DNA from: Dehalococcoidia bacterium
GTDB taxonomy: Bacteria; Chloroflexota; Dehalococcoidia; SZUA-161; SpSt-899
Length of the DNA stretch: 64,000 nt
Reading direction: 5' to 3'
NCBI GenBank assembly: GCA_034434815.1
Contig: DAOTYO010000005.1
Span: 13,118-77,117 of the forward strand
A model generated the notes under the pieces. That model worked only from the letters and a program-made list of their open reading frames with translations. It was not told where the DNA came from and ran no database searches. Made by a program: the position numbers and the translations under genes. Below, one piece after another: positions 31,365-59,087 of this stretch; position 1 is the first letter of the stretch; the number at the start of each line of letters is the position of its first letter.

Positions 31365-34300
31365 AAGCACCTCCACCCGATCCCCCTCAATATCCACGCC
31401 ACTGAGGGCGATGATGGGGATTCTCGCGCCGATTGGATCGCTCTTGAGGGCCCTGATGAAGTCCGCACCGCCTATCTTGGGCACAAGGAGATCGAGCAAA
31501 ATGAGGTCCGGTTTGCCGGTTCTTGCCGCCTCGAGCCCTTGCTGCCCGTCATAGGCGCCTGAGACCATAAAGCCCCGCTTTTCCAGGGCAGTCTGGATTT
31601 CGCGAACGAAGGCCTTGTCGTCATCCACCACCAACACTCTTCCGGGGGATCTCCGGATAAGCTGAGCAACCTTTCGAGCAACTTCCTCGACATCACACGG
31701 CTTGGTCAGATAATCGTTGGCGCCGAGCTTGAAAGCTTGCTCTTGATTCTCCATCACCGAGATGATCAAGATGGGGATATCGCGGGTGGCGGGGGCATCC
31801 CGAAGGATAGCGGTCACCTCCAATCCCGTGAGATCCGGCATGAGCACATCGAGGGTGATCAGATCGGGGACATGCTCGCGCGCCATGCGGATGGCTTCGT
31901 TGCCGTTCGGGGCTTCGATGACGTGGTAACCCCGCTGCGTGAGTTCATGGCCCAGAAAACGGCGGATATTGGGCTCATCATCCACCACGAGGATGGTATA
32001 GGGCCTTTCACCCGTCTGGTTTGCCGGCGGATCATCGGCGGGGGCATTCGAAGGGTTCGGGGGGAGATGCTGTGCTTCCCTTTGCCCATTCCCCCCACCC
32101 ACATTGGCGGCGGCGGGATTCTCCGCCGCCGGTGCTTCGGGTTCCGCCTTTGACTTGGCCGGCAGCGTGAAGAAGAACGTGCTCCCCTTGCCGGGCTCGC
32201 TCTCCACCCAGATCCTTCCGCCGAAGTGCTCCACGATATCCTTGCAGATCGTGAGGCCCAGTCCGGTCCCTTTCGGTTTATCCTTGAGGGTATCGCCGAT
32301 CTGATGGAATTTCTCGAAGATCCTCTGGTGCTCCTCGGGCGGGATGCCAATGCCCGTATCGGAGACGCTCACCTTGACCATCTCCAGCCCTTCGGTCGTC
32401 TCACTCCTCAGGCGCTCGGCCTTGATGCCGATGTGCCCGCCGGCGGGCGTGAACTTGACGGCGTTGCTGATGAGATTGGTCACCACCTGAATGATGCGAT
32501 CCCGATCGGCCCACACGATGGGCAAATCCGGCTCCCACGTCAGCTCCATGGTAAGATTCGCCTGAGCAACGAGGGCCCTCGTGGCGTTCACCGCCGATTC
32601 GAGCACATCCGGTATGCTGAGATCAACCGGATGCCACTGCACCCGGCCCGCTTCGATCTTCGAGATATCGAGTACATCGTTGATGAGACGGGTCAGCCGA
32701 TCGGCTTCCTCGTTGATGATGCCGAGGAATTCCTTTTCCGTCTCCCGATCATTCTCATAGTTCAAGAGGATCTCCGCAAAGCTCTTGATCGAAGTGAGCG
32801 GCGTGCGCAACTCATGGGAGACGGTGGAGAGGAAATTATCCTTCATCTTGTCGAGCTCTTTGAGCTTTTCGTAGGCGGCCTGAAGTTCATCCAGACGCTG
32901 CTTGAGCTCCTCCGAGTATTCGAGAAGCTTGTTCTGCGCTTCCCGCAGCTCTTCGTTGGTGACCTCCAACTCATGCGAGTGAACTTGAATCTCCTCGTGT
33001 TGCGCCCGGATCTCTTGTTCGGCGGCGGCACGCTCTTGTTCCATCTCGATGGCGTGCAACCCGAAGGCGATATCCCCACCGACCTCTTCGATCAGGGAAA
33101 GCTCTTCCTCGCCGCTCTCCAGCGCTAGAGGCCGGATAATGGAGATGATACCGAAGATATCATCCTTGTATTGAAGCCGAAGGACAATGGCCCGCTGCTG
33201 ACTCCGGCTGCACAGCGGGCAATCGTCAGCGCAGGCGGAAGCGGAGGCATCGACGGCCCTGGGCCGCGGCGTATCGAACGCCGCCCGTGCACACGGGGGC
33301 CACTCGCCCTTCTTCATTCGCTCGATCATGGAGGAAAACGCCTGCGGATCGATTCCCGCCACGGCGCTCGAAGCGTATCGGCCCAGCTTGTCCATCAACA
33401 CGATCCATGCGCCCGAGTACCCCCGGGTCTGGGTGAACGTCTCGCAGGCACCCTGAATGAGCCGTTCGGGGTCCTTTTCCCAGAGGATGAGCTGATCAAT
33501 CCGGCGAATGGCCTTGAGGATGGCATTGAGCCGTTCGATCTGTTCCTCCGCCCGCTTCCGCTCGGTCACATCCCGGATGAAGTTGAGACGCGCCTTCCCC
33601 CCTTTGTACTCGATGGGGTTCCCGCTGATCTCAAGCCACCCCACCTCCCCGGCCGCTTTCTCAACGGGGATCACCACCGTCCGCGGCCGATCGTTGGCGA
33701 GCACATCGGCGACCATCTCCTCCTTCATTCCCCGGCCCTTCTCCGAACCGAACACCTTCTCGGGAACATGCCACGACTCGATGAGTTCAAGGATATCCTT
33801 GCCCGCCCAGTCGAAGTCCACCGCCTCCATAAGCTGGTACATCCTTTGATTGGCGAAGAGGATCTCCGAACCCCGCATCAGCACGATGCCGTCCGGGCTC
33901 AGCTCCACAAGGGCGGCATATTCTTGTTCGCGCTCACGCAGCGCTTGCTCGATGCGTTTGCGCTCGGTGATATCCTGCGCGATGATCTGCACGGCGGTGA
34001 TCCGGCCGCTGTCATCGCGCACCGGCTGGATATTGGAGCGGAACCAGAAGCTCCCATCGGAGCGTTCAAGCAAGTTCTCGAACTCGTTGCCCACCCCCGA
34101 TTCGACCACGCTCCGGATCTGCGCCCGCATCGCTTCGGCCATCTCCGGGAGGACCTCGTAAAGCACCTTCCCCATGAAGTCATCCCGCCCGCCGTGGAGC
34201 ATCTTCGCCCCGATGTCGTTGAGCAAGATGATCCGGCCCTCCAGATCACAATAGATGATGGGGGTGCCTGCATTCTCGATGAGATTGCGGTATTTCTCCT

Positions 34301-35822
34301 CGCTCTCGCGGAGCCGCTGATTGACCTCGAGCAACCGCTCCTGAGTGTGCCGGAGCTCCTCATTGGCCGCTTCGATCTCGTACGCGTGGACCTGAATTTC
34401 CTGATGGGCCTGTTCGAGCTTCTGCATGGTCTCTTCGAGCTCGGCGTTGGCCGCGGTGATGATGCGGTTCTGCTCTTCGAACGCCGCCAGAAGCCGCTGT
34501 TGTTCCTCCTCGGTCTTCTTGATGGCGGTGATATCCACAAAATTCCCCAGCACCGCACGCTTCCCCCCGTACTCGATGCTGGCCACCTTCTCATAAACAT
34601 GCCGCTCGGACCCGTCCTTAGCCAAGAGGCGGAACTCGTACCCGGAGGAATCCAAACCCTTGAGCATCCGGATAGCCCTCTCCCGAACCCTTTCCCGATC
34701 CTCCGGATGAACGATGCTGAGCGAAGGCTTCCCGAGGATTTCCTCGCCGGAAAATCCCGTGATGCTCAGAAAGGCAGGGTTGACAAACCGCAACACCCCA
34801 TCTTGAGCGATATACATGGCGACCGGAGCATTGGCCGAGAGAACGGAGAAGAGTTCCTCGGCCTGTTTGCGGTCGGTGACATCCCGGAAATTGACCACGA
34901 TACCGTGGACCGCAGGGTCAGCGATGAGATTCTTGCCGACGAATTCCACATTGCGCCATGAGCCATCCTTGTTGAGGACCCGGATACGCAGGGACACGAG
35001 TTCATCGGGCTTCTCCATGGAACGGGCGATCATCTCGGTCACCGCCGAGAGATCATCGGGGTGCACGAGCCCCAGCGCACTCCGGTTGCGCAGTTCTTCC
35101 AACGTGTAACCGAAGGCGCGTTCCACGGAAGGGCTCACATAGCGGACGGTCCCATCGGCATTGAGGATCAAGATGCAGTCCGGCGCATTCTCGATGAGCG
35201 CGCGGAGTTGCCGTTCGCTCTCGGAGAGGGCTTGTTCGGCCCGGACGCGGCTGGCATGCTCCTCGGCCATTTCGAGGGCCACGGAGATGTGCTGGGCCAA
35301 GTTCCGCACCGAGGGGATCATCGCTTCGGGGAAGCCGGGGGAAGTCACCGCCACGAGTCCGATCGGTTTTCCATGCCGCTGAAGCGGAACCAGAAGCGAT
35401 GGCTGAGTCCCCAACCCGAGGATCTTGATCAAAACACCGACGAGCGCGCCGGGAACCAACTCCCCGAGGATCTGAGCACCATTGGCCTCGATGACCTTGC
35501 CCTCGCGGATCACCTGAGCGAAAATGGTGGATTTGTCGAGCTCGGCCCGGAAACCCTCCAATTTAAGGCCGGCGGCTTTCTCCATGGCATGCAACACCCT
35601 GCGCCCCACGGACGATTCCTTCACCGTCAGGGCTCTCCCGTCCTCCGTAAGGAGCATAATCGTGGCCGCATAGCGTTTGGAACCGGCGAACTCTTGGATG
35701 ACGGTATGGAAGATTTCCTCTTCCGTTCGAAGGCCGTGGATCTTGGCAGAGACATTCTCGGTGAAGTGGATGATATCGATGAGCTCTTGCAGAGATCGGT
35801 CCATCTTTTCCGCTTGTTTCAT
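31269..35822 (-). CDS. hybrid sensor histidine kinase with multiple PAS/GAF domains, HisKA-HATPase core and two C-terminal receiver domains
   Basis: 1517 aa; H-box LSTVSHELRTPLTSI; G-boxes VSDTGIGIPPEEHQRIFEKF and GTGLGLTICKDIVEHFGG; two REC domains (ILVVDDEPNIRRF...TLDVLMPD and VLVVDDDKAFVREI...LLDLLVPK); repeated PAS-associated coiled-coil segments. Confidence 0.85.
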   Translation of the reverse strand: MKQAEKMDRSLQELIDIIHFTENVSAKIHGLRTEEEIFHTVIQEFAGSKRYAATIMLLTEDGRALTVKESSVGRRVLHAMEKAAGLKLEGFRAELDKSTIFAQVIREGKVIEANGAQILGELVPGALVGVLIKILGLGTQPSLLVPLQRHGKPIGLVAVTSPGFPEAMIPSVRNLAQHISVALEMAEEHASRVRAEQALSESERQLRALIENAPDCILILNADGTVRYVSPSVERAFGYTLEELRNRSALGLVHPDDLSAVTEMIARSMEKPDELVSLRIRVLNKDGSWRNVEFVGKNLIADPAVHGIVVNFRDVTDRKQAEELFSVLSANAPVAMYIAQDGVLRFVNPAFLSITGFSGEEILGKPSLSIVHPEDRERVRERAIRMLKGLDSSGYEFRLLAKDGSERHVYEKVASIEYGGKRAVLGNFVDITAIKKTEEEQQRLLAAFEEQNRIITAANAELEETMQKLEQAHQEIQVHAYEIEAANEELRHTQERLLEVNQRLRESEEKYRNLIENAGTPIIYCDLEGRIILLNDIGAKMLHGGRDDFMGKVLYEVLPEMAEAMRAQIRSVVESGVGNEFENLLERSDGSFWFRSNIQPVRDDSGRITAVQIIAQDITERKRIEQALREREQEYAALVELSPDGIVLMRGSEILFANQRMYQLMEAVDFDWAGKDILELIESWHVPEKVFGSEKGRGMKEEMVADVLANDRPRTVVIPVEKAAGEVGWLEISGNPIEYKGGKARLNFIRDVTERKRAEEQIERLNAILKAIRRIDQLILWEKDPERLIQGACETFTQTRGYSGAWIVLMDKLGRYASSAVAGIDPQAFSSMIERMKKGEWPPCARAAFDTPRPRAVDASASACADDCPLCSRSQQRAIVLRLQYKDDIFGIISIIRPLALESGEEELSLIEEVGGDIAFGLHAIEMEQERAAAEQEIRAQHEEIQVHSHELEVTNEELREAQNKLLEYSEELKQRLDELQAAYEKLKELDKMKDNFLSTVSHELRTPLTSIKSFAEILLNYENDRETEKEFLGIINEEADRLTRLINDVLDISKIEAGRVQWHPVDLSIPDVLESAVNATRALVAQANLTMELTWEPDLPIVWADRDRIIQVVTNLISNAVKFTPAGGHIGIKAERLRSETTEGLEMVKVSVSDTGIGIPPEEHQRIFEKFHQIGDTLKDKPKGTGLGLTICKDIVEHFGGRIWVESEPGKGSTFFFTLPAKSKAEPEAPAAENPAAANVGGGNGQREAQHLPPNPSNAPADDPPANQTGERPYTILVVDDEPNIRRFLGHELTQRGYHVIEAPNGNEAIRMAREHVPDLITLDVLMPDLTGLEVTAILRDAPATRDIPILIISVMENQEQAFKLGANDYLTKPCDVEEVARKVAQLIRRSPGRVLVVDDDKAFVREIQTALEKRGFMVSGAYDGQQGLEAARTGKPDLILLDLLVPKIGGADFIRALKSDPIGARIPIIALSGVDIEGDRVEVLSLGAADYLTKTGDMDRLFKTISTALGNRTRS

Positions 35823-36543: not shown

Positions 36544-38949
36544 GTGAGATCCCTCGGGCTGGATGAGCAAAGCGTGAACCGGATACTCGTCACCAAGATC
36601 CCCCGCAAAGCGGCCGGGCTCGTGTCCCGAAGGCCATGGTGGATGATTCTCATTATCCTCGTCCTCACCGCGATCCTTGCGCCCGGCACAACGCTTCTCA
36701 AGACCTCCACCGGATTCGATACCCTCGTCTCCCCCAAAGCCAAGATCTACCGGGATTCCCGGATCTACGCGGCCGAGTTCGGGGCGGATCCCGCCGTCGT
36801 GCTCCTTCGCGGAAAGCTCGATGCCATCTTCTCACCCGAGACTCTGGCGGTGCTGAATCGGTTCGAGGAAGCGTACTCCCCCGAAAAAGATCGGCGCGTT
36901 CAAGCTATTCTCTCTCCGGTGACCATCCTCAAGCTCGCGGCAGAGGAAGCAACGGCCCGAGGTTTCCCCATGGAGTGGAACGATCCCGCACTGATCGCGG
37001 CGGTCCTCGGAGATTCCCCCGAAAATCGGGCCCCGGAGATGGCCTCCCTCATCCCGGACGAACGCCACGTGCTCATCACCGTAACCCCGAGGGGCGATAC
37101 CCCGTTCGACGATTCGCTGGCCCTTCTGAGGGATATCGAAGCCTTCTTCGAGGATGCGCAACACGAGCTCCCCTCCGGCATCTCTTTCTTCGTCACCGGC
37201 GATATGGAGATGATCTCCGCCGTCAGCGATGCCATCGGCAACAACATGAAGACCCTCCTCATACTTTCCGTCGGTGTCATGGCCATCATCCTCATCCTCT
37301 CGTTCCGCGTTCGGTGGAATCTGCTTTCGCTCTTCATGGTCGGCATAGGATCCCTGTGGACCTTCGGATTGATGGGATACCTCGGGGTCCCGCTCTCCAT
37401 GGCCACCATGGCGGTTCTGCCGGTGCTCTTCGGGCTGGGGATTGACTATTCGATCCAGTTCCACAACCGCTATCAGGAGGAGGTGATCGGGAGCAAATCG
37501 GTCTCGGCGGCCATCACCGCTTCCATCTCCCGCATGTTTCCCACGGTGCTGATCGCCCTCGTTTCCACGATCATCGGGTTCATCACCCTGTACATCTCGG
37601 AAGTGCCCATGGTACGGCATTTCGGACTCATGCTCTCAGTGGGGATGATCTTCTGCTTTGTGATCGCCCTGTTCTTCCTCAACAGCATTATCTTGGTGAA
37701 CGAAAGAAGAATATCGGTGGACAAGCTCGGCAAATCGGCCGCCGCGGCCACGCGTCATCTAGAAAGGGCCCTCGCCGCCGGGGGGCGATTCACCATCCGC
37801 TATCCCCTGCCGATCATCGTGATCGCCATGGCCACAGGCATCGGGGGAGCCGTGGTGGATCGTTGGCTGCCCGCAAAAGGCGATATCGAAGGCTTGATGC
37901 CCCAGGGATCGGAGGCCATCCACGAGATTCGAACCCTGCGCGATGTTCAGGGCTACATGGGCGAACTCCGCTTCATCGTTCAAGCCGAAGACGTCACCGA
38001 TCCCGCCGTGTTGCGATGGATAGCCGAGTTTCAAGGGGAAGCGACCGCCCGTTACGGGTCCGATGCCGCCACGGAAAACCTTGCGGAACGGGAGACCGCG
38101 GCGATCCGGGGGAGCAACAGTCTGGCCTCCCTCATCGCCCAATGGAACGATGGCCACCTTCCGGAGGATCGGGAACAGGTCGAGCAGATCCTCGCGCGCA
38201 TCCCCGATGTATTCGTAACCCAATTCCTTTCCGCTGATCATCGCACGGCCAGCCTTTCCTTCAGCATCGACAACACCTCCGTGGAGCAAATCAACCAGCT
38301 TATCAAACGGCTGAAGGAGGACATCCACAGGACGCAAACGGAGGGCATCACGGCAAGTCCCGCCGGAACCATGGCCCTCGGCGCCAGCACTGTGGACGCC
38401 ATGATGGGCCGAAGATTCCTGATGAATGTCATTTGTCTCGGCGCCGTCTTCGCTGTGATGTTCTCCATCTATCGGCATCTGACCCGCACCTTCTTCGCCA
38501 TCATTCCCGTGGGGATGGTCATGGGATGGGCATCCCTCGATCTGTATCTGGCCCACATCCCCCTCAACCCCCTCACTTCGGTTCTGGGATTGCTCGTTGT
38601 GGGGATCGGGACCGAGTTCATGGTCCTCATCTTGGGCAGATACGAAGAGGAGAAGCGCACGAGCGGCAAATCCCCTCACGAGGCAATGGTGATCACCCTC
38701 TCCAAGACCGGCCGGGCCATCTTGGCTTCGGTACTGACCACCCTTGGGGGATTCGGCGTGCTCATCAGCTCTAACTTCGTTCTGCTCCGCGACTTCGGCA
38801 TCGCCACCACCATCGGCACGTTCCTGTGCATGATCGCTTCGATGATCGTCATGCCCCCGATCATCGTGTGGTGGGATACCCGTGTGGCCGAGCATCTCAC
38901 CATGGAACGCCTCAAGAACGGCTCATGGGCCAAACGGCGGAAGCAGTAG
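36544..38949 (+). CDS. MMPL/RND superfamily membrane transporter
   Basis: 801 aa with two 6-TM bundles (LILSVGVMAIILILSF...; FLMNVICLGAVFAVMFSIY...) separated by large soluble loops; GTG start uncertain (alternative ATG at 36643). Confidence 0.7.
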   Translation: MRSLGLDEQSVNRILVTKIPRKAAGLVSRRPWWMILIILVLTAILAPGTTLLKTSTGFDTLVSPKAKIYRDSRIYAAEFGADPAVVLLRGKLDAIFSPETLAVLNRFEEAYSPEKDRRVQAILSPVTILKLAAEEATARGFPMEWNDPALIAAVLGDSPENRAPEMASLIPDERHVLITVTPRGDTPFDDSLALLRDIEAFFEDAQHELPSGISFFVTGDMEMISAVSDAIGNNMKTLLILSVGVMAIILILSFRVRWNLLSLFMVGIGSLWTFGLMGYLGVPLSMATMAVLPVLFGLGIDYSIQFHNRYQEEVIGSKSVSAAITASISRMFPTVLIALVSTIIGFITLYISEVPMVRHFGLMLSVGMIFCFVIALFFLNSIILVNERRISVDKLGKSAAAATRHLERALAAGGRFTIRYPLPIIVIAMATGIGGAVVDRWLPAKGDIEGLMPQGSEAIHEIRTLRDVQGYMGELRFIVQAEDVTDPAVLRWIAEFQGEATARYGSDAATENLAERETAAIRGSNSLASLIAQWNDGHLPEDREQVEQILARIPDVFVTQFLSADHRTASLSFSIDNTSVEQINQLIKRLKEDIHRTQTEGITASPAGTMALGASTVDAMMGRRFLMNVICLGAVFAVMFSIYRHLTRTFFAIIPVGMVMGWASLDLYLAHIPLNPLTSVLGLLVVGIGTEFMVLILGRYEEEKRTSGKSPHEAMVITLSKTGRAILASVLTTLGGFGVLISSNFVLLRDFGIATTIGTFLCMIASMIVMPPIIVWWDTRVAEHLTMERLKNGSWAKRRKQ

Positions 38950-39258: not shown

Positions 39259-39693
39259 ATGAAAATCCTCGTCATTCACGGCCCAAACCTGAACATGCTG
39301 GGGAAACGCGATCCTGCGCACTACGGCACGAAGACGCTGGAGGAGATCAACTCCGCCCTGAGGGAACGCGCCAAAGCGCTCGGGGTGGAGATCGAGGCTT
39401 TTCAATCGAACCATGAGGGCTCGCTGATCGACTTCATTCAGGAACATGCTCCGGGGGCCGATGGAATCATCATCAATCCGGGCGCGCTGACCCATTACGG
39501 CCTATCGCTGCGCGATGCGCTGGCCGATGCCCAACTTCCCGCCATCGAGGTACACCTTTCGAATATCCATGCTCGGGAGGACTTCCGCCGGAAATCCGTC
39601 ATCGCACCGGTGACGAAGGGGCAAATCAGCGGGCAGGGATGGCAGGGATACATCGCGGCTCTGGAAATGCTATGTGCCCGAGACAGAAGATAA
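39259..39693 (+). CDS. aroQ: type II 3-dehydroquinate dehydratase
   Basis: MKILVIHGPNLNMLGKR...QSNHEG...IIINPGALTHYG. Confidence 0.9.
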   Translation: MKILVIHGPNLNMLGKRDPAHYGTKTLEEINSALRERAKALGVEIEAFQSNHEGSLIDFIQEHAPGADGIIINPGALTHYGLSLRDALADAQLPAIEVHLSNIHAREDFRRKSVIAPVTKGQISGQGWQGYIAALEMLCARDRR

Positions 39694-41437: not shown

Positions 41438-41857
41438 ATGACTCAGGAACACCCCGCACGAGCCGCCGCCAAACGTTCCATCAGCGCCGCTGAGCGGAGA
41501 GCCAAAGAGGAATGGCTCTCGCTCTATGCCGACGATGCCACAGTCGAAGACCCCGTCGGCCCTTCCCCGATAGACCCCGAGGGAAAAGGGCATCACGGGA
41601 AGGAAGCTCTGGCACGCTTCTTCGATAACAACATCGCCAACACCCGGATCAAATTCGAGATCAAGGATTCGTTCGCCGCCGGCAACGAATGCGCCAACGT
41701 GGGCAGTATCCATCTCACCTTCGCCGATGGCAGCACCGCCCGATGCGACGGCGTCTTCGTGTACCGGGTCAACCCCGATGGCAAGATCGCCTCGCTGCGC
41801 GCCTTCTGGGAGTTCGACCGGATGATGAAGACCATCAAGCCGGCCCCCAAATCGTAA
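41438..41857 (+). CDS. SnoaL-like / NTF2-fold protein (ketosteroid isomerase-like)
   Basis: 139 aa, alpha+beta cone composition; GGGAGG RBS; the track ORF begins upstream at 41393. Confidence 0.55.
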   Translation: MTQEHPARAAAKRSISAAERRAKEEWLSLYADDATVEDPVGPSPIDPEGKGHHGKEALARFFDNNIANTRIKFEIKDSFAAGNECANVGSIHLTFADGSTARCDGVFVYRVNPDGKIASLRAFWEFDRMMKTIKPAPKS

Positions 41858-41910: not shown

Positions 41911-42375
41911 ATGGCGGAAAACCATTTGCCCGATTTCAAGCTCCCGCCGGTCTATCAACTCGGCTATGTGGTCCGGGATATCCGGAAAGTCTGCGATTAC
42001 TACGCCTCGACCTTCGGCATGGGGCCCTTTTCTCCGCCGATGGAGGTGAACATGGACGGGGCCATCCTCCGCGGCCGGCCGGTGCGATGCCGGATCAAGG
42101 TCTCCTTCGCCCAGTCCGGCCCCCTTCAGATCGAGCTCATCGAACCCATCGAGGGCGAGAACCCGTACTTCGAATTCCTCGAAGCAAAAGGCGAGGGCAT
42201 CCACCACCTCGCCTTTCCGGTGGAAGATATGAATGCCGCCAAGGCGGCCTTCAGGGCCATAGGATTGGAGCCGGTGTTCTATCATGATATGAAGGTGATG
42301 GAATTCGCCTATTTCGATACCTCGGCGATCGGGGGACTGTGGGTGGAATTTCTTTACTGGAAGGCCAAGAAATGA
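41911..42375 (+). CDS. VOC family protein (glyoxalase/bleomycin resistance/extradiol dioxygenase fold)
   Basis: Two beta-alpha-beta-beta-beta modules, with metal ligands typical of VOC (HLAF...E); GGGAGG RBS; stop overlaps the next gene start (ATGA). Confidence 0.65.
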   Translation: MAENHLPDFKLPPVYQLGYVVRDIRKVCDYYASTFGMGPFSPPMEVNMDGAILRGRPVRCRIKVSFAQSGPLQIELIEPIEGENPYFEFLEAKGEGIHHLAFPVEDMNAAKAAFRAIGLEPVFYHDMKVMEFAYFDTSAIGGLWVEFLYWKAKK

Positions 42376-44558
42376 ACAGCGGAAAAGAGGAAATCATCAC
42401 CACTTTGTGTGCCCCTCACTGCGGCGGCGGATGCCTCCTCAAGGTCCACGTCCGGGAGGGGCGGATCGTGCGCATCGAGACCGATGACGGCCCGGAGCCG
42501 CAAGTGCGGGCATGCCTTCGCGGCCGATCGTGGCGGCAACGCATCTACCATCCGGACCGGCTACTGTACCCGCTCAAACGGGCGGGGGAGCGGGGGGAAG
42601 GGAAGTTCGAGCGCATCTCTTGGGATGAGGCGCTGAATACGATCGCCGATGCCCTCAAACGCACGATCACAACCTACGGGCCCGCTTCGATCGTCCACTG
42701 GGTCTCGGGGGGCGATCAGGGCATGCTTCACGATACGTGGCGGCGCATGAGCCGCCTTTTTTGTATGCTCGGCGGGTACACCCGCCCATGGGGCTTGCAC
42801 TCCTACGAAGGGGGGATCTTCGCCGAGCTGGCCACGTTCGGCATGGCGTGGACCGCCAGCACCCGCGACGACCTTTTGAACTCGAAGCTCATCATCATGT
42901 GGGGATGGGATCCCTCGACCACGATTCAAGATACCAACACCGCATGGTACTTGGCACAGGCCAGAGAGAAGGGAATCAAGATTATCGCCGTGGACCCGCG
43001 TCTGACCGCCACGGCGGCCGCCTTTGCCCATCACTGGATCCCCATCCGCCCCGGCACCGATGCGGCGGCGCTCATCGCGATGGCGCACGTGACGATCACC
43101 GAGAACCTTCACGATCAGGCCTTCCTCGATAGATACACCCTCGGATTCGAAGTCTTCCGCGATTATGCGCTGGGGAAGGAAGACGGCGTGCCCAAAACCC
43201 CCGAATGGGCCGAGCCGATCACCGGCATCCCCGCGGAAACCCTTCGCAAGTTGGCCCGCGAGTATGCCACCACGAGACCCGCGGCTCTGATTGCCGGCAT
43301 CGCACCGGGGCGGACGGCCTACGGCGAGCAGTATCACCGTGCAGCGATCACGCTCGCCGCCATGACCGGCAACATCGGCAAGCCCGGCGGATCTTGCGGC
43401 GGCAAATCGTGGGGGCCCCATGCACTGGGCAAGATGGGCTCGGGACCCAAGATCCCCCCCAACCCCGTGGACGGGCTCGTGCCGAACCCCAAGGGCAAGT
43501 TGCCCAATCGCAACTACTACATCTACGGATACGGGATCATCAATCTCTTTCACCTCACCGATGCCATCCTCAAGGGCAAGGCCGGGGGCGCTCCGGCCGA
43601 CTTCAAGTTCCTCTGGGTGACCAACGCCAATCCGGTCAACCAGTGGCCCAACACGAACAAAACAGTGGAAGCCTTCAAGAAACTCGATTTCGTGGTCACC
43701 GAAGAGCAATTCCTCACCCCGACCGCCCGCTATGCCGATATCGTGCTTCCCTCGACCACTTTCTTCGAGCGTGCCGATATCACCATGGGAGCCGCCACAC
43801 CGCCGTTCTACGGATACCGGAGGCGGATCATCGCGCCGCCCGGGGAGTGCCGAACCCCGATGGACGTGGCGCGCGAGTTGGCCTTACGGCTCGGACTAAA
43901 GGATTACGACGACAAATCCGATGAAGCGTGGCTCGATGACATCCTTGCAAAGAGCGATATCCCCGATCGGGAGGCCTTCAAGCGGGAGGGCTATCACAAG
44001 CTCAAGCTACCCCGGCCGCACATCCCCTTCCGGGAGCAAATCGAGAACCCGGAAAAGAATCCCTTCTACACCCCTTCCGGCAAGATCGAGATCCACTCCA
44101 AACTCATCGCCGATATGAACGATCCCCTCATTCCGCCGATCCCGAAATACATCGAGCCGTGGGAGGGACCAAACGATCCGTTGCGGAAGAAGTATCCCCT
44201 GCAACTCATCACCACGCACACGCGGCGGCGCGCGCATACCCAATTCGATAACGTCCCGTGGCTTCGGGAGCTCGATCCTCATGCCATCCGCATCAACTCC
44301 CGCGACGCCGAAGTGAGGGGAATCGAAGACGGCGATAGGGTCAGGGTCTTTAACGATCGGGGCACGGTCATTGTTCCGGCCAGAGTGGTGGAGACGATCA
44401 TGCCGGGGGTGGTGGATTTGCCTGAGGGCGCATGGTACGCTCCGGACGCGGACGGGGTGGATCGGGGGGGATGCGCCAACGTGCTCTCGCTCGATCGGCC
44501 CTCGCCCGGAGGAGCTTTGCCTTCCAATACGGCGCTGGTTCAGATCGAAAAGGCATAG
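42372..44558 (+). CDS. molybdopterin/tungstopterin oxidoreductase, DMSO-reductase family, cytoplasmic (acetylene-hydratase-like size and architecture)
   Basis: 728 aa; N-terminal Fe-S cysteine cluster TLCAPHCGGGC...C; no twin-arginine signal; molybdopterin-binding blocks; translationally coupled to the upstream VOC gene. Confidence 0.75.
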   Translation: MNSGKEEIITTLCAPHCGGGCLLKVHVREGRIVRIETDDGPEPQVRACLRGRSWRQRIYHPDRLLYPLKRAGERGEGKFERISWDEALNTIADALKRTITTYGPASIVHWVSGGDQGMLHDTWRRMSRLFCMLGGYTRPWGLHSYEGGIFAELATFGMAWTASTRDDLLNSKLIIMWGWDPSTTIQDTNTAWYLAQAREKGIKIIAVDPRLTATAAAFAHHWIPIRPGTDAAALIAMAHVTITENLHDQAFLDRYTLGFEVFRDYALGKEDGVPKTPEWAEPITGIPAETLRKLAREYATTRPAALIAGIAPGRTAYGEQYHRAAITLAAMTGNIGKPGGSCGGKSWGPHALGKMGSGPKIPPNPVDGLVPNPKGKLPNRNYYIYGYGIINLFHLTDAILKGKAGGAPADFKFLWVTNANPVNQWPNTNKTVEAFKKLDFVVTEEQFLTPTARYADIVLPSTTFFERADITMGAATPPFYGYRRRIIAPPGECRTPMDVARELALRLGLKDYDDKSDEAWLDDILAKSDIPDREAFKREGYHKLKLPRPHIPFREQIENPEKNPFYTPSGKIEIHSKLIADMNDPLIPPIPKYIEPWEGPNDPLRKKYPLQLITTHTRRRAHTQFDNVPWLRELDPHAIRINSRDAEVRGIEDGDRVRVFNDRGTVIVPARVVETIMPGVVDLPEGAWYAPDADGVDRGGCANVLSLDRPSPGGALPSNTALVQIEKA

Positions 44559-44615
44559 GGACACGCTCGCCTTGAGTCGAGTCCCGGCCCCAAAATGCAT
44601 GGGGGATGATGTGAA

Positions 44616-46538
44616 ATGTTCGGATATGCGGGAAAGATTCTGAAGGTGAACCTTACCAATCAAAGGGCCGAGGAACTCCCTACCTCAGACTATGCGGAGC
44701 GATTCCTCGGGGGAAAGGGGCTTGCCGCCAAGCTGTACTGGGATGAGATGCCCCCGAAGGCCGCCGCCGCCGATCCGCGGAGCGCGGTGATCTTCTCCAC
44801 CGGGCCATTGGCCGGCGCGCCGGGGATCGGCGCCTCCCGATGGATGGTATCCGGGAAGTCCCCCGTCTCCGATCCGGAACACTTCGTCCACTGCAATCTC
44901 GGGGGACGGTGGGGAAACGACCTCAAGGCGGCCGGCTACGACGCCCTGATGATCACCGGCAGATCCGAAAGGCCCGTTTACCTCTTCCTCCACGATGGAA
45001 TCTGCGAGTTCAAGGACGCCAACGGGCTCCGGGGAAAGGGTGCCATCCGAACAAGGAGAATCCTGAAGGTCGAATACGGCGAAGGAATCAGTGTGGCGGC
45101 GGTGGGGCCGGCGGGTGAGAGCGGTGCTGTGATGGCCAATGTGATCGCCGAGGACGATGCCTCCGGATCGGCGGGGCTGGGAGGGGTAATGGGCTCCAAG
45201 AATCTCAAGGCCATCGTGGTGCCCCAAGGCAAGCTCAAGATTCAGATGGCGTATCCGGAGCACTTCAAGCAACTGGCCGCCCGCTACCGCGCTCTGGGAA
45301 AAGAGCCCATCACCGCTGTGGCCGGCGTGCCCATGCGCATCATGGGCCCCAATACCCGCCGGGCACCATGCCCCTTGTGCTCGTTCGATTGCATCCGCCG
45401 CACCTACGAATCGAAGGAGGGCGATGTGGGCAAGTTCATGTGCCAATCCGCCATCTTCTATCGCCCCATGGCCGAGGCCATCTACGGTCCGGATAGCGAT
45501 ATCCCCTTCCGGGCCACCAAGCTCTGCGATGAATACGGACTCGATACCATGGCGGTCTCGGTGATCATTGGATGGCTCTGGCGTTGCATCCGGGCGGGCA
45601 TCCTGAACGATCAGAACACGGGGCTTCCGCTCTCCAAATTCGGCACCATCGAGTTTCTGGATACCCTTCTGCACAAGATATCCCTTCGGGAGGGGTTCGG
45701 GGAGCTTCTGGCAAAAGGCGTACACAAAGCGGCAGAGTCCCTCGGAGGGAAGGCCGTCTCGGCGCTCGCGCCGCTCGTTTCCAAGGCCGGGCAAGAGAAT
45801 ACCTATGATGCCAGACTGTACCCCAATACCGCCCTCCTCCATGCCACCGAGCCGCGCAACCCCACCCCTCAGCTTCAGGAGATCAGCCGCGTGATCTTCA
45901 AATGGCTGGAATGGCGCCGCGGCGAAGACGGAGCCTTCGTCTCGGGGGAAGTGGCCCGGCGCATCGCCGCCCGCTTCTGGGGAAGCGAAATCGCCGCCGA
46001 TTTCACCACGTTCGAGGGGAAGGCTCTGGCGGCCAAGATGATTCAGGATCGGGAGTACGCCAAGGAATGCCTCATCCTCTGCAGCTTCGTGTGGCCGGTG
46101 ATGGAAGCGCGGTTCACCCCGGATCACGTTGGCGATCCCACGCTCGAGGCTCAGGTGCTGACAGCGGTGACCGGCCGGGAATTCGATGAATCGAGCTTGA
46201 ACCGCGTGGGCGAGAGGGTCTTCAATCTGCACCGGGCGATCCTCTTGCGGGAGGGACACCGAGGGACAGCGGATGACCGACTCCCGGAACTATGGTTCAC
46301 GGAGCCCATCAAATGGGATATGCCCAATCCCAATTTGGAGGTGCCGGGGCCGAACGGCCAGCCCGTTTCCCGCAAAGGGGCAACGGTCGACCGCTCAGCC
46401 TTCGAGCAATCGAAAAAGGAATACTATCGACTCCGGGGATGGGATCCGGAAACGGGAATCCCTCCGGAAGCCGCCCTGCGCGCCCTCGATCTCGGGGATA
46501 CGGCGGAGAATCTCAGCCAGCGCCGAATCCTCCCGTAG
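44616..46538 (+). CDS. aldehyde:ferredoxin oxidoreductase family (tungsten-containing AOR)
   Basis: N-terminus MFGYAGKILKVNLT characteristic of AOR; 640 aa; Cys ligands for a 4Fe-4S cluster (CPLCSFDC...C). Confidence 0.85.
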   Translation: MFGYAGKILKVNLTNQRAEELPTSDYAERFLGGKGLAAKLYWDEMPPKAAAADPRSAVIFSTGPLAGAPGIGASRWMVSGKSPVSDPEHFVHCNLGGRWGNDLKAAGYDALMITGRSERPVYLFLHDGICEFKDANGLRGKGAIRTRRILKVEYGEGISVAAVGPAGESGAVMANVIAEDDASGSAGLGGVMGSKNLKAIVVPQGKLKIQMAYPEHFKQLAARYRALGKEPITAVAGVPMRIMGPNTRRAPCPLCSFDCIRRTYESKEGDVGKFMCQSAIFYRPMAEAIYGPDSDIPFRATKLCDEYGLDTMAVSVIIGWLWRCIRAGILNDQNTGLPLSKFGTIEFLDTLLHKISLREGFGELLAKGVHKAAESLGGKAVSALAPLVSKAGQENTYDARLYPNTALLHATEPRNPTPQLQEISRVIFKWLEWRRGEDGAFVSGEVARRIAARFWGSEIAADFTTFEGKALAAKMIQDREYAKECLILCSFVWPVMEARFTPDHVGDPTLEAQVLTAVTGREFDESSLNRVGERVFNLHRAILLREGHRGTADDRLPELWFTEPIKWDMPNPNLEVPGPNGQPVSRKGATVDRSAFEQSKKEYYRLRGWDPETGIPPEAALRALDLGDTAENLSQRRILP

Positions 46539-46562
46539 CAACCATACGAAAGGGGGAAGAAT

Positions 46563-47387
46563 ATGCCGAACGAGAAAATGATCGCCCACATCCGAGAGGC
46601 CGGGATCGCCCAAGGGCCCAAGAAGCGGGAGGATCGGGAACGGTTGCTCCGGGAATTCGGCTTCCGCACCAAGGACCGGGCCGAGTATGCGCTCATCGCC
46701 AGTTGCTTCAATCCCTACCTCGAGCCCAACGATATGATCGCCTTTCGCCACCTCCTCGACCGCTTCGAGGTGGACTACTCCCTCCTCCCCAAGGAGTACT
46801 GTTGCGGCGACCCGTTCTTCCTTCACGCCATCAATACCGGCTCACCCTCGGAATTGGAGGGGGCAAAGGCACTGGCGGCGGAGTTCTTCGCCGAAAACCT
46901 CCGGCAGGTGCGCCACCTCGGCGCGAGCAAAATCATCCTCTATTGCGCCGGTTGCGATATGGTCTTCGATGCCTTCAAAGCCGATGTTCCCGAGGAGATC
47001 CTGTGGTATCCCACGCTCTTCGCCCGCCTCTTCCGGGGCGGAAAGCTCGATCTCGAGGCCGATTACTATCCCGGATGCCACCGCAACCGCCGGGCGGGCA
47101 GGGCCACACCGCTCGATCTTGAGGCCGTATCCCGGATCCTCGACCGCATCGAAGGGCTCGAACTGAATCCGTTGAGCACGGATCTCTGCTGCATGAAAGC
47201 GGAAGAGCTCCCGACCCTCGCCGCCGGCATCCGATCCCGCACGGTCATCACCCCCTGTTCGGGGTGCTCCATGTTCCTCCGGCAAGCGCTCAAGGAGAAG
47301 AAGGGAAGCCGGGTATTCTTGCTCTCGGAAGTGCTCCTCGCGGCCGTCACCGGCCGGCCGTTGAGAGAGCCTGAGGCGCCGGCTTGA
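46563..47387 (+). CDS. heterodisulfide-reductase subunit B-like (Fe-S)-binding protein with two CCG domains
   Basis: Cys-rich CCG motifs (EYCCGDPFF, ILYCAGCDM, DLCCMKAEE, ITPCSGCSM). Confidence 0.65.
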   Translation: MPNEKMIAHIREAGIAQGPKKREDRERLLREFGFRTKDRAEYALIASCFNPYLEPNDMIAFRHLLDRFEVDYSLLPKEYCCGDPFFLHAINTGSPSELEGAKALAAEFFAENLRQVRHLGASKIILYCAGCDMVFDAFKADVPEEILWYPTLFARLFRGGKLDLEADYYPGCHRNRRAGRATPLDLEAVSRILDRIEGLELNPLSTDLCCMKAEELPTLAAGIRSRTVITPCSGCSMFLRQALKEKKGSRVFLLSEVLLAAVTGRPLREPEAPA

Positions 47388-52651: not shown

Positions 52652-52861
52652 CTAGGATTCCTCCACCTCTTCCTCTTCGAGGATCATGTCGGCTTCGTTC
52701 CCGCAGACCTTGCAAACCATCACTTTCTTCTTCTGCTTCGGCGGCTGCCCGTGTTCGGCAAGGCTGCTCGCTTCCTCGGTGATGACGATATCCGCCTCAT
52801 TGCCGCAGCGATCGCAAACGAACGTGTGGCGATGTTCCTTCTTCATGCACTTGCTCCTCAT
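52652..52861 (-). CDS. small zinc-ribbon / rubredoxin-like protein with an internal duplicated CxxCGNEAD motif
   Basis: 69 aa; two CxxC knuckles (CDRCGNEADIVITEE and CKVCGNEADMILEEE) about 29 residues apart, as in rubredoxin; ATGA overlap with the FDP stop. Confidence 0.5.
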   Translation of the reverse strand: MRSKCMKKEHRHTFVCDRCGNEADIVITEEASSLAEHGQPPKQKKKVMVCKVCGNEADMILEEEEVEES

Positions 52862-54039
52862 CCTTTGATCTTATCGGCGATACGCCGTCCGAAAGCCGCA
52901 CATTCGGCAAGCTCCGATTCCGTGGGGACCCACTTGAAAGCAAGTTCCGGCTCCACGATTTCGATGCCCGTCTGTTGGAGTTCCTGCGCAATGGCCTTCG
53001 CGGCGCCGCCGTTCCATCCGTAAGACCCGAAGGCCGCCCCGATCTTCCCCTTGGGTTTCAGCCCCTTCATGTAGCAAAGGAATTCCGCCACCGAAGGGAA
53101 CATGCCGTTATTGAGGGTGGGCGAGCCCACGATCACCGCCGCGGCATCGAGCACGTGAGTCATGATATCGCTCTTATCGGAGGCGGTGAGATTGTACAGT
53201 TTGACCTCGACCCCCTTGCTGAAGAGCCCGTCGGCGATGGCAGAGGCCATCTTGGCGGTGCTGTGCCACATCGTATCGAATACGATCACCGCCTTCTTTC
53301 TCGTCTTCCCCGCACTCCATTCGCTATAGGCGGAGATGATCTTGCCCGGATCGGCCCGCCAAATCACTCCATGATCGGGGGCGATGATCTTGATGGAAAG
53401 CCCGCCGAGCTTCTTGAGTGCCCCGGGGATCAAGTGAGCAAACGGCATCAAAATGTTGGCGTAATACTTGGCCGCTTCTTGCATCACCACGGCGGGGTCC
53501 ACCTCGTCATCGAACCGCTCGGAAGTAGCGAGGTGCTGCCCGAAGGCATCGCTCGAAAACAGCAACTCATCATGCGGGGAATAGGTGACCATCGAATCCG
53601 GCCAGTGAAGCATCGGCGTGGGCACGAAAACCAGCTTGCGCTTGCCGATATCCAGCGAGCTCCCCTCCTTGACCGTGAGCATGGGCCGATCGAATCCGAA
53701 GTGTTTGCGGAGGCCGGCCTCGCCGAACTTCTCCGAAGTTACGAGCTCGGCCCGGGGAGCGGCCTTGAGCATCATGGGAAGCGATCCCGAATGATCCATC
53801 TCCACGTGATTGGAAATGATGTAATCAATCTTCTCCGGATCCACGATCTCCTTGATCCGGCCGAGCATTTCGTAAAAGAAGGGGTGTTTGACCGTGTCCA
53901 CAAGGACAACCTTTTCATCCATGATGAGAAAGGCGTTATAGGTCGTCCCCCGATGGGTGGAATAGCCGTGGAAATTCCGGATGTTCCAATCTATGGCCCC
54001 GACCCAGTGGACGCCCGGGGCGATTTCTACTGTACTCAA
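52858..54039 (-). CDS. flavodiiron protein (rubredoxin:oxygen/NO oxidoreductase; metallo-beta-lactamase + flavodoxin domains)
   Basis: 393 aa; di-iron ligands H-x-E-x-D-H (NHVEMDHSG), flavodoxin-like C-terminal half. Confidence 0.85.
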   Translation of the reverse strand: MSTVEIAPGVHWVGAIDWNIRNFHGYSTHRGTTYNAFLIMDEKVVLVDTVKHPFFYEMLGRIKEIVDPEKIDYIISNHVEMDHSGSLPMMLKAAPRAELVTSEKFGEAGLRKHFGFDRPMLTVKEGSSLDIGKRKLVFVPTPMLHWPDSMVTYSPHDELLFSSDAFGQHLATSERFDDEVDPAVVMQEAAKYYANILMPFAHLIPGALKKLGGLSIKIIAPDHGVIWRADPGKIISAYSEWSAGKTRKKAVIVFDTMWHSTAKMASAIADGLFSKGVEVKLYNLTASDKSDIMTHVLDAAAVIVGSPTLNNGMFPSVAEFLCYMKGLKPKGKIGAAFGSYGWNGGAAKAIAQELQQTGIEIVEPELAFKWVPTESELAECAAFGRRIADKIKG

Positions 54040-54081
54040 ATCTCCTCCTTCGGCCTGACGTGTTGCCCGGTAATACGGCTC

Positions 54082-54585
54082 CTAATCGATCTTCTTGAAA
54101 GCCTTTTTCGGGGCCCCGCAGATGGGGCATTTATCGGGCGGTTCTCCCTCGACGGTGTTGCCGCAAAACGGGCACACATAGATATCCACAGCGGGAATGC
54201 TCTGGCCTTTTTCGAGTTTGCTCAGGTACTCGGTGAACAAGCGATGATGGATCTGTTCCACCTTGTTGGCCATATCGAAGCTCTCCACGGCCTTCTTGGC
54301 GCCCTCGGCGCCGGCATCCTTGATGAACTGGGGATACATCTGTGTGAACTCATGGTGCTCGCCGCTGACGGCGGCCCCGAGGTTCTCGCGGGTTGTTTTG
54401 ATCCCCCCGATGACCTTCAGATGATTGCGGGCGTGCACCGTTTCGGCCTCCGCCGCCGCGCGAAAGAGCCGGGCGATCTGCTTCAAGCCTTCTTTCTCCG
54501 CTTGTTCTGCGAAGAAAAGGTACTTCCGATTGGCCTGACTTTCGCCGGCGAAGGCTGACTGAAGATTATCGTTTGTACGGGTCAT
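54082..54585 (-). CDS. rbr: rubrerythrin
   Basis: Ferritin-like ExxH motifs (EAETVHARNH, EHHEF) plus C-terminal rubredoxin-like CPFCG...CPICG. Confidence 0.9.
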   Translation of the reverse strand: MTRTNDNLQSAFAGESQANRKYLFFAEQAEKEGLKQIARLFRAAAEAETVHARNHLKVIGGIKTTRENLGAAVSGEHHEFTQMYPQFIKDAGAEGAKKAVESFDMANKVEQIHHRLFTEYLSKLEKGQSIPAVDIYVCPFCGNTVEGEPPDKCPICGAPKKAFKKID

Positions 54586-55013
54586 CTTTCACCTCCCAAG
54601 ATCTCCTTCGTTTGTTCGGCAACCGTATCCGTCTCTGTACATCTTACCACATACCTTGAATGGAACCGCACCGCCTCGGCAACCAGTGCCTTGATTTCCT
54701 CCCCCCTGATACTCTCCACATCCCGAATCCGGATATACCGGTAATTCTCATCCGTTCCCGCAAGAAGGCCCGTTACATCCCTGAGGCAAGCCCCTTCAAA
54801 GAAGCCCAAGCTGACATATCCGGGGAAGGTATCAATGCAACAAATCCCGCCCCCTTTCGAATAGACGGGACGCCCCCACCGCATCCCTTCTTCGATCTCC
54901 GGCTCCGCCTCGAAAATCAGGCTCCGGAGGCGCTCCACGATCACCCGGCGGCTTGGATCAAGTCTGGCCAGAAACATCCCCACCCCTTGGCCCGTGACCT
55001 TTTCGTTCTTCAT
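54582..55013 (-). CDS. DUF1801 (YdhG-like) domain protein
   Basis: 143 aa from the Met preceded by GGGGGGG; family assignment by overall similarity. Confidence 0.6.
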   Translation of the reverse strand: MKNEKVTGQGVGMFLARLDPSRRVIVERLRSLIFEAEPEIEEGMRWGRPVYSKGGGICCIDTFPGYVSLGFFEGACLRDVTGLLAGTDENYRYIRIRDVESIRGEEIKALVAEAVRFHSRYVVRCTETDTVAEQTKEILGGER

Positions 55014-55098
55014 AACGGCACCCCCCCATCGAGTTGAAAGACGCCGAATTCGATCGCGCAAGGGTCACAAGACCGCATCCCAGCGGGATATGTCCTCC

Positions 55099-57234: not shown

Positions 57235-57306
57235 CCATCGCATCCTTGGCCCCGTTTGCCGCCGAGAAGCGGGAGGCCCGCTTCTCGGCGGCAAATAAAG
57301 GGTCCC

Positions 57307-57744: not shown

Positions 57745-57807
57745 ACATACCTCCTTGAGAATCTCTCCGGATTTTCGGCATCCCTATCCCATTTCCGTCA
57801 AAACCCG

Positions 57808-57927: not shown

Positions 57928-57947
57928 GTTCCGGGGTCAAAACACAA

Positions 57948-58637: not shown

Positions 58638-58681
58638 CGAGACACTTGCGGGTTGGTTCGTAGCTTCCAAGAGATCCCTCC

Positions 58682-58840: not shown

Positions 58841-58888
58841 CCCTAACCGCTCCTTTCAGAAGATTTTTTCCTCCAATACTAACGGGGC

Positions 58889-59071: not shown

Positions 59072-59087
59072 TCACGAGCCTCCCCCC

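Follow-up and report, generated by a model that had tools for sequence, protein, structure and literature searches.

The window analysed here, the whole stretch of 64,000 nt from a Dehalococcoidia bacterium (contig DAOTYO010000005.1), carries on its + strand, between efp (which ends at 41380) and argH (which starts at 47397), a compact locus with genes for two pterin-dependent enzymes. An earlier note on this DNA had described four co-directional genes encoding a vicinal oxygen chelate (VOC) protein, a molybdo- or tungstoenzyme of the dimethyl sulfoxide (DMSO) reductase (DMSOR) family, an enzyme of the aldehyde:ferredoxin oxidoreductase (AOR) family of tungsten-containing oxidoreductases (WOR), and an HdrB-like protein with two CCG domains. 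The genes, their coordinates and the family calls were confirmed by open reading frames (ORFs) and Pfam, and a gene for a protein resembling ketosteroid isomerase (KSI) precedes them. The locus is an undescribed cytoplasmic redox module, rather than the hydratase-to-aldehyde pathway proposed before, because its DMSOR-family enzyme groups with DmsA and its "AOR" with a predicted Cys-ligated branch. The genes and features are as follows.

41438-41857, + strand: KSI/SnoaL-like protein, 139 aa (Pfam SnoaL_2, E 9e-16)
41911-42375, + strand: VOC/Glyoxalase_4 protein, 154 aa (Pfam Glyoxalase_4, E 2e-17)
42372-44558, + strand: DMSOR-family, DmsA-type enzyme with a molybdenum or tungsten bis(pyranopterin guanine dinucleotide) cofactor (Mo/W-bisPGD), 728 aa (Pfam Molybdop_Fe4S4, Molybdopterin and Molydop_binding)
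42408-42515, + strand: Cys motif C13-x3-C17-x3-C21...C48 for the [4Fe-4S] cluster (FS0) of the DMSOR-family enzyme (residues read directly)
42801-42803, + strand: codon of Ser144 of the same enzyme, predicted Mo/W ligand (alignment to TorA and E. coli DmsA)
44616-46538, + strand: AOR/WOR-family pterin enzyme, 640 aa (Pfam AFOR_N and AFOR_C)
45369-45443, + strand: [4Fe-4S] motif C252-x2-C255-x3-C259 of the AOR-like enzyme (fourth ligand C489), with an extra Cys276 (invariant in relatives)
46563-47387, + strand: double-CCG iron-sulfur protein of HdrB/LutA/EtfD type, 274 aa (Pfam CCG, E 1e-11)

The translational coupling of the VOC and DMSOR genes noted earlier was borne out by direct reading, with the stop codon of the former and the start codon of the latter overlapping in ATGA. 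The intergenic distances were 53 nt (SnoaL/VOC), -4 nt (VOC/DMSOR), 57 nt (DMSOR/AOR), 24 nt (AOR/CCG) and 9 nt (CCG/argH). Scans for consensus promoters and terminators gave hits at chance level only, with no signal bounding the module. Because the whole run aroQ-pepP-efp-SnoaL-VOC-DMSOR-AOR-CCG-argH-rpe is in one direction with short gaps, the limits of the module are not given by spacing, and it is comparison with other genomes that defines it.

The context survey covered 80 genome loci, 80 metagenome loci and the contigs recovered by exact protein look-up (loci are numbered with L), together with tblastn searches using 18 reference proteins. Neighbour statistics were taken over 171 de-duplicated DMSOR hits, binned by identity to the window DMSOR. 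Neighbourhood conservation, which had been suggested as a check, was thereby assessed: the order VOC-DMSOR-AOR-CCG is kept in L081 and L174, and L086 has the same order with one gene for an old yellow enzyme (OYE) inserted, all three being metagenome-assembled genomes (MAGs) of Chloroflexota. Identities to the window in L174 were 78% (DMSOR), 59% (AOR) and 52% (CCG), and the AOR-like proteins of L081 and L086 were 87% and 60% identical. A VOC gene lay directly upstream of the DMSOR gene in 6/7 loci with DMSOR identity of at least 75% (the seventh, L001, has VOC-dmsB-DMSOR), in 4/5 at 60-75%, in 6/31 at 55-60%, and in 0/106 below 55%. A DmsB-like ferredoxin gene stood upstream of VOC in six of the seven loci of the highest group, the exception being the lineage of the window (L081); the classical dmsA-dmsB order prevails below 55% identity. 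The CCG gene was found within 5 kb solely in the group of at least 75% identity, in all five loci having downstream DNA. So the firm core is VOC plus DMSOR, joined by CCG in the orthologous group, and chance does not account for the four genes lying together.

It could still be asked whether four unrelated genes simply lie in a long co-directional housekeeping run with no functional unit among them. The uniform direction and short gaps from aroQ to rpe, with just 9 nt between CCG and argH, the lack of bounding promoter or terminator signals in the scans, and the distant CCG relatives (47-55% identity), which stand alone in unrelated neighbourhoods, would all agree with this. The gene order is nevertheless kept at 59% (AOR) and 52% (CCG) identity in L174 and around an inserted gene in L086, in each case with different flanks; the VOC and DMSOR genes overlap; VOC accompanies every DMSOR of at least 75% identity, and CCG all such loci that extend downstream. 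We regard the absence of any functional unit as highly improbable.

The AOR-like gene behaved differently from this core. One or two genes for MaoC-type hydratases occupy the exact slot between DMSOR and CCG in L002 (12226-13129) and L082 (12236-12688), with DMSORs 77-78% identical to that of the window. Because MaoC fills the AOR slot in these two close lineages, the AOR-like gene is a partner that accompanies the DMSOR often but can be replaced and is not obligatory. Of the pathway unit formed by DMSOR and AOR in the earlier note, therefore, the conserved gene unit stood, and the fixed pairing of the one with the other did not. An independent arrangement, DMSOR (56-58%)-DmsB-like-AOR (47-49%)-two CoA-transferases, was present in L120, L121 and L166, and in L116 without the DmsB-like gene; the AOR-like and DMSOR genes of L176 are 4 kb apart.

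The fullest version of the cluster was found in L174, a Dehalococcoidia MAG. It has a DMSOR paralogue, a BaiCD-like OYE/FAD enzyme, dmsB-like, VOC, DMSOR, AOR-like and CCG genes, followed by genes for a PaaI-like thioesterase, a second VOC protein (VOC2), two EthD proteins and two short-chain dehydrogenases/reductases (SDR). The composite of the larger cluster can be written as [DmsB-like ferredoxin]-VOC-DMSOR-[WOR-like or MaoC]-[OYE]-CCG-thioesterase-VOC2-EthD-SDR. Surrounding the relatives are type III CoA-transferases (CoA_transf_3), CoA ligases, acyl-CoA dehydrogenases, MaoC proteins, thioesterases, BaiCD/FadH-type OYEs and SDRs, and the relatives carry several DMSOR paralogues per locus. 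DmsB-like (Fer4_11), thioesterase, VOC2, EthD, SDR, OYE and MaoC genes were found nowhere else in the 64-kb window. The sole other member of this enzyme set in the window is a type III CoA-transferase at 1279-2745 (- strand; Pfam CoA_transf_3, 364 bits), 31% identical to the enzyme of the related clusters. The window, as its gene content suggests, represents a pared-down core of a larger Chloroflexota/Dehalococcoidia cluster with the flanks missing.

Some further observations concern the flanks of this larger cluster. Its flavoenzymes (L082 6946-8868 and neighbours; L086 6071-7267) score highest, below cut-off, to BaiCD and bilirubin reductase, and models of 7alpha-hydroxysteroid dehydrogenase are among many near-equal matches of its SDRs. 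The families of flavoenzymes, SDRs, type III CoA-transferases and CoA ligase, together with the KSI-like protein of the window, mirror the bai operon.

The DMSOR-family enzyme begins with MNSGKEEIITTLCAPHCGGGC, and its first cluster cysteine is residue 13, therefore there is no space for a twin-arginine translocation (Tat) leader; the longest alternative upstream start gains just 11 residues. The phmmer match to E. coli DmsA sets in beyond the leader, at DmsA residue 55, and runs end to end thereafter. These positions confirm the earlier description of a 728-aa protein with a CAPHCGGGC motif and no Tat signal. The phmmer bit scores were 498 to E. coli DmsA, 314 to TorA, 311 to DorA, 208 to pyrogallol transhydroxylase (PGTH) and 183.5 to acetylene hydratase (AH). 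Among NCBIfam models, dmsA_ynfE (TIGR02166) reached 655.6 bits, followed by BisC (440), TorA (353), PhsA (274) and FdhA (264); it is the top family by more than 200 bits, yet under its curated cut-off of 777.7, and the match begins past the signal peptide, at profile position 41. In TorA and E. coli DmsA the Mo ligand is the Ser of the GDYS motif; Ser144 of the window enzyme (PWGLHSYEGG) aligns to it and is invariant in an alignment of 32 relatives, as are H16, C17, G18, G19, C21 and C48.

AH of Syntrophotalea acetylenica is also cytoplasmic, of about 730 aa, of the DMSOR family and equipped with an N-terminal [4Fe-4S] cluster, and on these grounds the earlier note had likened the two enzymes. 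The active-site residues differ. In the HMMER alignment to AH (chain 2e7z) Gly18, invariant in the family, stands opposite AH Asp13, which is essential and lies beside the second cluster Cys (AH numbering, PMC12096430). The position of AH Cys141, placed through the TorA and DmsA alignments, is occupied by Ser144. AH is Cys-coordinated (PMC10100899, PMC12096430) and belongs to a different branch of the family from the Ser-coordinating one, which holds DmsA, DorA, TorA and BisC as well as the hydroxylases RhL and PgtL (PMC10100899). With the scores of 183.5 versus 498 bits, we rejected the AH reading. Membership among the RhL/PgtL hydroxylases was likewise rejected, since PGTH scores just 208 bits. 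From these alignments, the enzyme is predicted to be a cytoplasmic, signal-less, DmsA-type relative and not of the AH type. Its best match in the genome collection is 78% identical, and the nearest homologues are labelled as Chloroflexota or Dehalococcoidia MAGs.

Signal-less DmsA-type genes of 48-50% identity with a dmsB-like gene downstream were also seen in MAGs of Desulfobacterota and of Asgard archaea (Promethearchaeia, Hodarchaeota, Hermodarchaeota), with L014, L017, L021 and L043 among the loci. Transfers of DmsA-like genes have been noted earlier (PMC10100899), and these occurrences are consistent with them.

Compared with E. coli DmsABC and YnfEFGH, the catalytic subunit is homologous end to end, with the same N-terminal [4Fe-4S] motif and Ser ligand position, and relatives of the module encode an adjacent DmsB-type four-cluster ferredoxin (168 bits to TIGR02951; 142 bits to E. 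coli DmsB). Unlike these systems, the window DMSOR has no Tat leader, is accompanied by no DmsB in the 64 kb and has a co-inherited VOC ahead of it. A DmsC anchor was found neither in the window nor in the relatives examined. The order in close relatives is dmsB-VOC-dmsA and not dmsA-dmsB, and the genes are set among those for CoA-ester enzymes.

This kinship raises the alternative of a cytoplasmic BisC-like system for S- or N-oxides, such as DMSO, trimethylamine N-oxide (TMAO), free methionine sulfoxide or biotin sulfoxide. Electrons would come from the WOR-like enzyme and/or the CCG protein, VOC would be a glyoxalase-type detoxifier, and the role would be repair, detoxification or an electron sink. 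It is favoured by DmsA/YnfE being the closest characterised family, by the retained Ser ligand, by a run of oxygen-defence genes 5-12 kb downstream, and by a distant CCG relative that adjoins a flavodiiron protein. DmsA homologues of Dehalococcoidia have also been taken as candidate DMSO/TMAO reductases (PMC4959651). Several points disagree with it: the DmsA/YnfE score is under the curated cut-off, the clusters of the relatives are rich in CoA-ester enzymes with DMSOR paralogues multiplied per locus, VOC is tightly co-inherited with just this DMSOR clade, which would not be expected of a generic glyoxalase, and the WOR-like enzyme does not belong to the type that detoxifies aldehydes. In addition, the positions of DorA Tyr114 and Trp116 are held by Ser and Gly in the window enzyme, as judged through the TorA alignment. 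We consider an S-/N-oxide reductase system unlikely.

The AOR-like protein has a well conserved N-domain (~135 bits) and catalytic domains that are very divergent from every solved WOR. Its membership of the WOR family is clear from Pfam, Foldseek and the invariant CxxCxxxC...C cysteines, and the pterin-binding DxxGLD motif is present as CDEYGLD (read directly). Total scores were 173-180 bits to formaldehyde ferredoxin oxidoreductase (FOR), BamB and AORs (FOR 180, BamB 177) and 162 bits to E. coli YdhV. The AlphaFold2 (AF2) model (pLDDT 90.8) gave Foldseek TM values of 0.72-0.76 to all solved WORs alike, and sorting the WOR clades by structure was uninformative for this reason. The best NCBIfam model was YdhV PRK09849, with 252.6 bits versus a cut-off of 868, and hhalign to YdhV was full-length (probability 100, 29% identity), with C276 opposite Cys336.

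Five cysteines are invariant in the alignment of the AOR-like protein with 37 relatives of 51-87% identity. C252, C255, C259 and C489 are the [4Fe-4S] ligands, and the fifth is C276 (GKFMCQS), which HMMER places opposite BamB Cys322 whether single sequences or profiles are aligned. Residues 276-283 (CQSAIFYR) contain no Glu where AOR and FOR carry Tyr-Glu313; Glu313 aligns to Tyr282 or Gln277. For Thr243, Tyr427 and His448, which accompany Glu313 in the second shell of AOR, the alignments gave no dependable counterpart. A 2025 review, which also treats the role of YdhV Cys336, reports that the metal is bound by this Cys, which every BamB and YdhV sequence retains and no other AOR/WOR member has, and that the BamB and YdhV clades are without the residues that aldehyde-oxidising enzymes have in the second shell (PMC12096430). 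Canonical AOR homologues at other Dehalococcoidia loci retain the (D/E)(Y/W)E motif as ELDYES or DIEWET. The recombinant large subunit of clade 41 (YdhV-type) was inactive on 46 aldehydes, and the activity of the YdhV clade is not known (PMC13328260). The canonical aldehyde-oxidising reading was rejected on account of the invariant C276 at the BamB/YdhV ligand position and the missing Glu313 counterpart.

These results bear directly on the pathway of the earlier note, in which a Mo/W hydratase or hydroxylase of the AH kind yields an aldehyde and the adjacent AOR oxidises it. The cytoplasmic DMSOR of about AH size, with its N-terminal [4Fe-4S] motif, and the AOR-family gene that follows DMSOR in several genomes are compatible with such a pathway. 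Against it stand Gly18 for Asp13 and Ser144 at the Cys141 position, the low AH score, the BamB/YdhV-type Cys without Glu313, the clade-41 subunit inactive on aldehydes, and MaoC in place of AOR in two lineages. The pathway thus appears very unlikely, and the part of the claim that has the AOR oxidising an aldehyde could not be sustained.

With BamB, of the class II benzoyl-CoA reductase, the AOR-like protein shares the WOR fold, the [4Fe-4S] motif, the extra Cys aligned to the W ligand Cys322, the lack of a Glu313-type residue and an Hdr-like partner in the system. It differs from BamB in the segment with Glu251, His255, Glu257 and His260 (Zn site and proton relay), which has 75 residues (220-294) in BamB versus 28 (220-247) here, with no Glu/His cluster; Pfam AFOR_C is matched from profile position 65 onward. 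Because this proton-relay segment is missing, orthology to BamB was rejected. As for partners, the AOR-like gene has only that for the CCG protein beside it and none for BamC or BamE-I. With E. coli YdhV and the clade 41 "class V" WORs it has in common the best NCBIfam model, the position of C276 opposite Cys336 and a similar C-terminal domain; coriobacterial members of clade 41 were reported to have an extra pyranopterin subunit of unknown kind (PMC13328260). It is, however, 60 residues shorter than YdhV and cytoplasmic, and genes for a Tat-bearing WorS and for the membrane or cytochrome subunits of the YdhV class V type were not found in the window. So we place it, on the alignments, as a Cys-bearing WOR-family enzyme of a branch that is not known to oxidise aldehydes, and neither as BamB nor as a class V (YdhV) enzyme.

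The AOR-like proteins of L116, L120, L121 and L166 keep Cys276 and have Asp for the third [4Fe-4S] cysteine. Such an Asp was reported for WOR5/ASOR (PMC12096430).

The likeness to BamB also allows the reading that the module is centred on a Cys-ligated tungsten reductase that would reduce an aromatic or unsaturated CoA ester at very low potential, with the CCG protein as BamD/E and the DmsA-type enzyme (de)hydroxylating the same skeleton. C276 opposite BamB Cys322, the missing second-shell Glu, the Hdr-like nature of BamD/E (PMC13328260) and the adjacency of AOR-like genes of this clade to CoA-transferases, BaiCD/NCR-type OYEs and HGD-D proteins point to it. Three results oppose it: the Glu251/His255/Glu257/His260 segment has no counterpart and the AFOR_C match begins late, the BamC and BamE-I genes are not present, and BamB at 177 bits is no nearer than FOR at 180 or YdhV at 162, with a fold search that does not discriminate. 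It seems to us quite unlikely.

The ten cysteines of the CCG protein are invariant in 33 relatives and form two C..CC..CxxC motifs (48/80/81/128/131 and 172/209/210/232/235), of which the second reads CCM and not CCG. Sequence search against solved structures gave no match at E<=1, therefore a fold search was needed. Given the AF2 model (pLDDT 92.6), Foldseek matched HdrB with probability 1.0 (TM 0.50-0.57) and had better values for LutA (0.62/0.70) and for the CCG portion of EtfD from M. smegmatis (TMq 0.70). At the level of predicted fold and motif, then, the HdrB-like label of the earlier note is right. The protein has in common with HdrB, LutA and EtfD the two motifs, the ten invariant Cys and the predicted fold, and differs in that the window has no HdrA/HdrC, LutB/LutC or membrane domain to go with it. 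Being an HdrB-type double-CCG protein, it could be the electron exit suggested earlier. The family is small (83 proteins, ~268 aa), and the members with a named source are all from Chloroflexota. One distant member, at L090, adjoins genes for a flavodiiron protein and a flavodoxin.

For the VOC protein the nearest solved relatives were the structural-genomics entry 3gm5 (78 bits) and then methylmalonyl-CoA epimerases (~35 bits). The match to the methylmalonyl-CoA epimerase model TIGR03081 was 43 bits, under the cut-off of 114.95; the protein belongs to the Glyoxalase_4 fold family. In 21 VOCs encoded next to DMSORs, all four canonical metal positions (Q16/E75/H99/E146) are conserved, which argues for a working metalloenzyme and not a mere structural subunit. 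Fusions of VOC to DMSOR, looked for as a sign of physical association, were absent from the 150 best representatives; tandem double-VOC proteins are frequent among the relatives. Of solved proteins, the KSI-like protein is closest to Rv0760c of M. tuberculosis (95 bits), putatively a steroid isomerase, with ketosteroid isomerases next. Its gene has a GGGAGG Shine-Dalgarno sequence ahead of the ATG and occurs in the same place only in L081, the nearest relative. It is possibly an accessory gene of the module.

Bringing these results together, we tentatively favour, at somewhat below even confidence, a cytoplasmic two-pterin redox module that acts on a carbonyl- or CoA-activated organic substrate, in which the DMSOR performs oxygen-atom transfer. 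In this scheme the DMSOR, being neither a hydratase nor a DMSO respiratory reductase, would move an oxygen atom to or from the activated substrate, either by hydroxylation with water or by deoxygenation. The VOC and KSI-like proteins may epimerise or isomerise enolisable intermediates. The WOR-like enzyme would carry out a further low-potential two-electron step different from ordinary aldehyde oxidation. The [4Fe-4S] clusters of the two enzymes would exchange electrons with the CCG protein, which, with DmsB and DmsC absent, probably connects the module to a quinone or a thiol/disulfide couple.

Organic CoA- or carbonyl-activated substrates are preferred over DMSO respiration because the relatives have CoA-enzyme neighbours and multiplied DMSOR paralogues. 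A precedent for a DmsA-type enzyme working on CoA esters is PadBCD, the phenylacetyl-CoA:acceptor oxidoreductase of Thauera and Aromatoleum, a DmsABC-like molybdoenzyme that oxidises the alpha-carbon of the CoA thioester phenylacetyl-CoA. We liken it to the window DMSOR by description; it differs from the latter in being bound to the membrane and in having a DmsC-like subunit. Oxygen-atom transfer on an organic substrate is favoured because Ser-type DMSOR hydroxylases (RhL, PgtL) are known, and because of PadBCD and the gene context. A Dehalococcoidia gene was annotated earlier as phenylacetyl-CoA:acceptor oxidoreductase (PMC4959651).

A number of points weigh against the favoured scheme. Among characterised proteins its DMSOR is still nearest to an S-/N-oxide reductase, and MaoC takes the place of AOR in L002 and L082. 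The window is without a DmsB-like gene and, save the CoA-transferase at 1279-2745, without the CoA-metabolism genes of the cluster within 64 kb, and the transfer of context from the relatives is therefore indirect. Every instance comes from MAGs and from one phylum. Distant CCG relatives stand alone, so the CCG protein is not necessarily dedicated to the module. The pairing of Cys276 comes from divergent catalytic domains, with HMMER posteriors of ~0.3-0.7, and MAFFT shifts YdhV slightly. The substrate is not nameable, and for the association of the proteins, as for the substrate class and the direction of electron flow, we infer from gene content and relatives.

A bolder version is a single soluble two-pterin complex, in which the DmsA-type and the Cys-ligated WOR-type enzymes are wired by the DmsB-like ferredoxin (in relatives) or the CCG protein (in the window) and, on one and the same CoA- or carbonyl-activated cyclic substrate, couple a water-dependent hydroxylation, or else a dehydroxylation, at the Mo/W-bisPGD site with a BamB-like reduction of very low potential at the other pterin. 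We hold this to be rather improbable. If true, it would mean a new ATP-independent attack of Dehalococcoidia on aromatic, alicyclic or steroid-like carbon and a first function for the soluble YdhV/BamB-like WOR clade.

Each protein of the module falls in a known superfamily and none reaches a curated family cut-off. The full-text literature searched yielded no account of the module, in keeping with the word "undescribed" in the earlier note; neither a VOC-linked cytoplasmic DmsA clade nor a soluble WOR clade of the Cys type in Chloroflexota, nor the two together, was found described there. A physiological role is known for only 5/92 WOR clades, and the sole member known to act outside aldehyde chemistry is BamB (PMC13328260). 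In sediment Dehalococcoidia, DmsA homologues without a signal are plentiful, and their routine annotation as DMSO reductases has no evidence behind it (PMC4959651). The locus, as a compact five-gene version of a conserved cluster, brings together both uncharacterised enzyme types, the co-inherited VOC and an orphan CCG protein, and so is a convenient starting place for heterologous expression. Should the substrates of the enzymes prove to be organic, a large share of the "DMSO reductase" and "AOR" annotations in subsurface Chloroflexota would need revising, as would views of refractory-carbon use.

Among the other genes of the window, moaA (9270-10253) and a gene for an RNase H-MoaC fusion (10257-11192) are 31-33 kb upstream of the module, in line with the earlier placing of moaA/moaC about 30 kb away. 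The fusion, on the + strand directly after moaA (9270-11192 for the pair), has RNase H at residues 3-126 and MoaC at 144-279, an unusual domain pairing. The gene aroQ, for a type II 3-dehydroquinate dehydratase, is at 39259-39693 (+ strand), 2.2 kb upstream of the module, and likewise in L081; in L174 it is found directly after the full cluster (14186-14617, - strand). The proximity may be due to chance or may point to substrates of the quinate/shikimate type.

Upstream of the housekeeping run there are a 1517-aa ORF at 31269-35822 (- strand), whose sequence looks like that of a hybrid sensor kinase and has two receiver-like regions at the C-terminal end, and, just before the run, a gene for an 801-aa MMPL/sterol-sensing-domain transporter at 36544-38949 (+ strand). 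The defence genes 5-12 kb downstream of the module form a run at 52858-60481 (- strand) against O2 and reactive oxygen species that is typical of an anaerobe, with genes for a flavodiiron protein, rubrerythrin, a 731-aa DUF255 thioredoxin-domain protein, a 1-Cys peroxiredoxin and rubredoxin. Beyond it are ORFs whose N-termini resemble flavin reductase-like and DJ-1/PfpI-like proteins.

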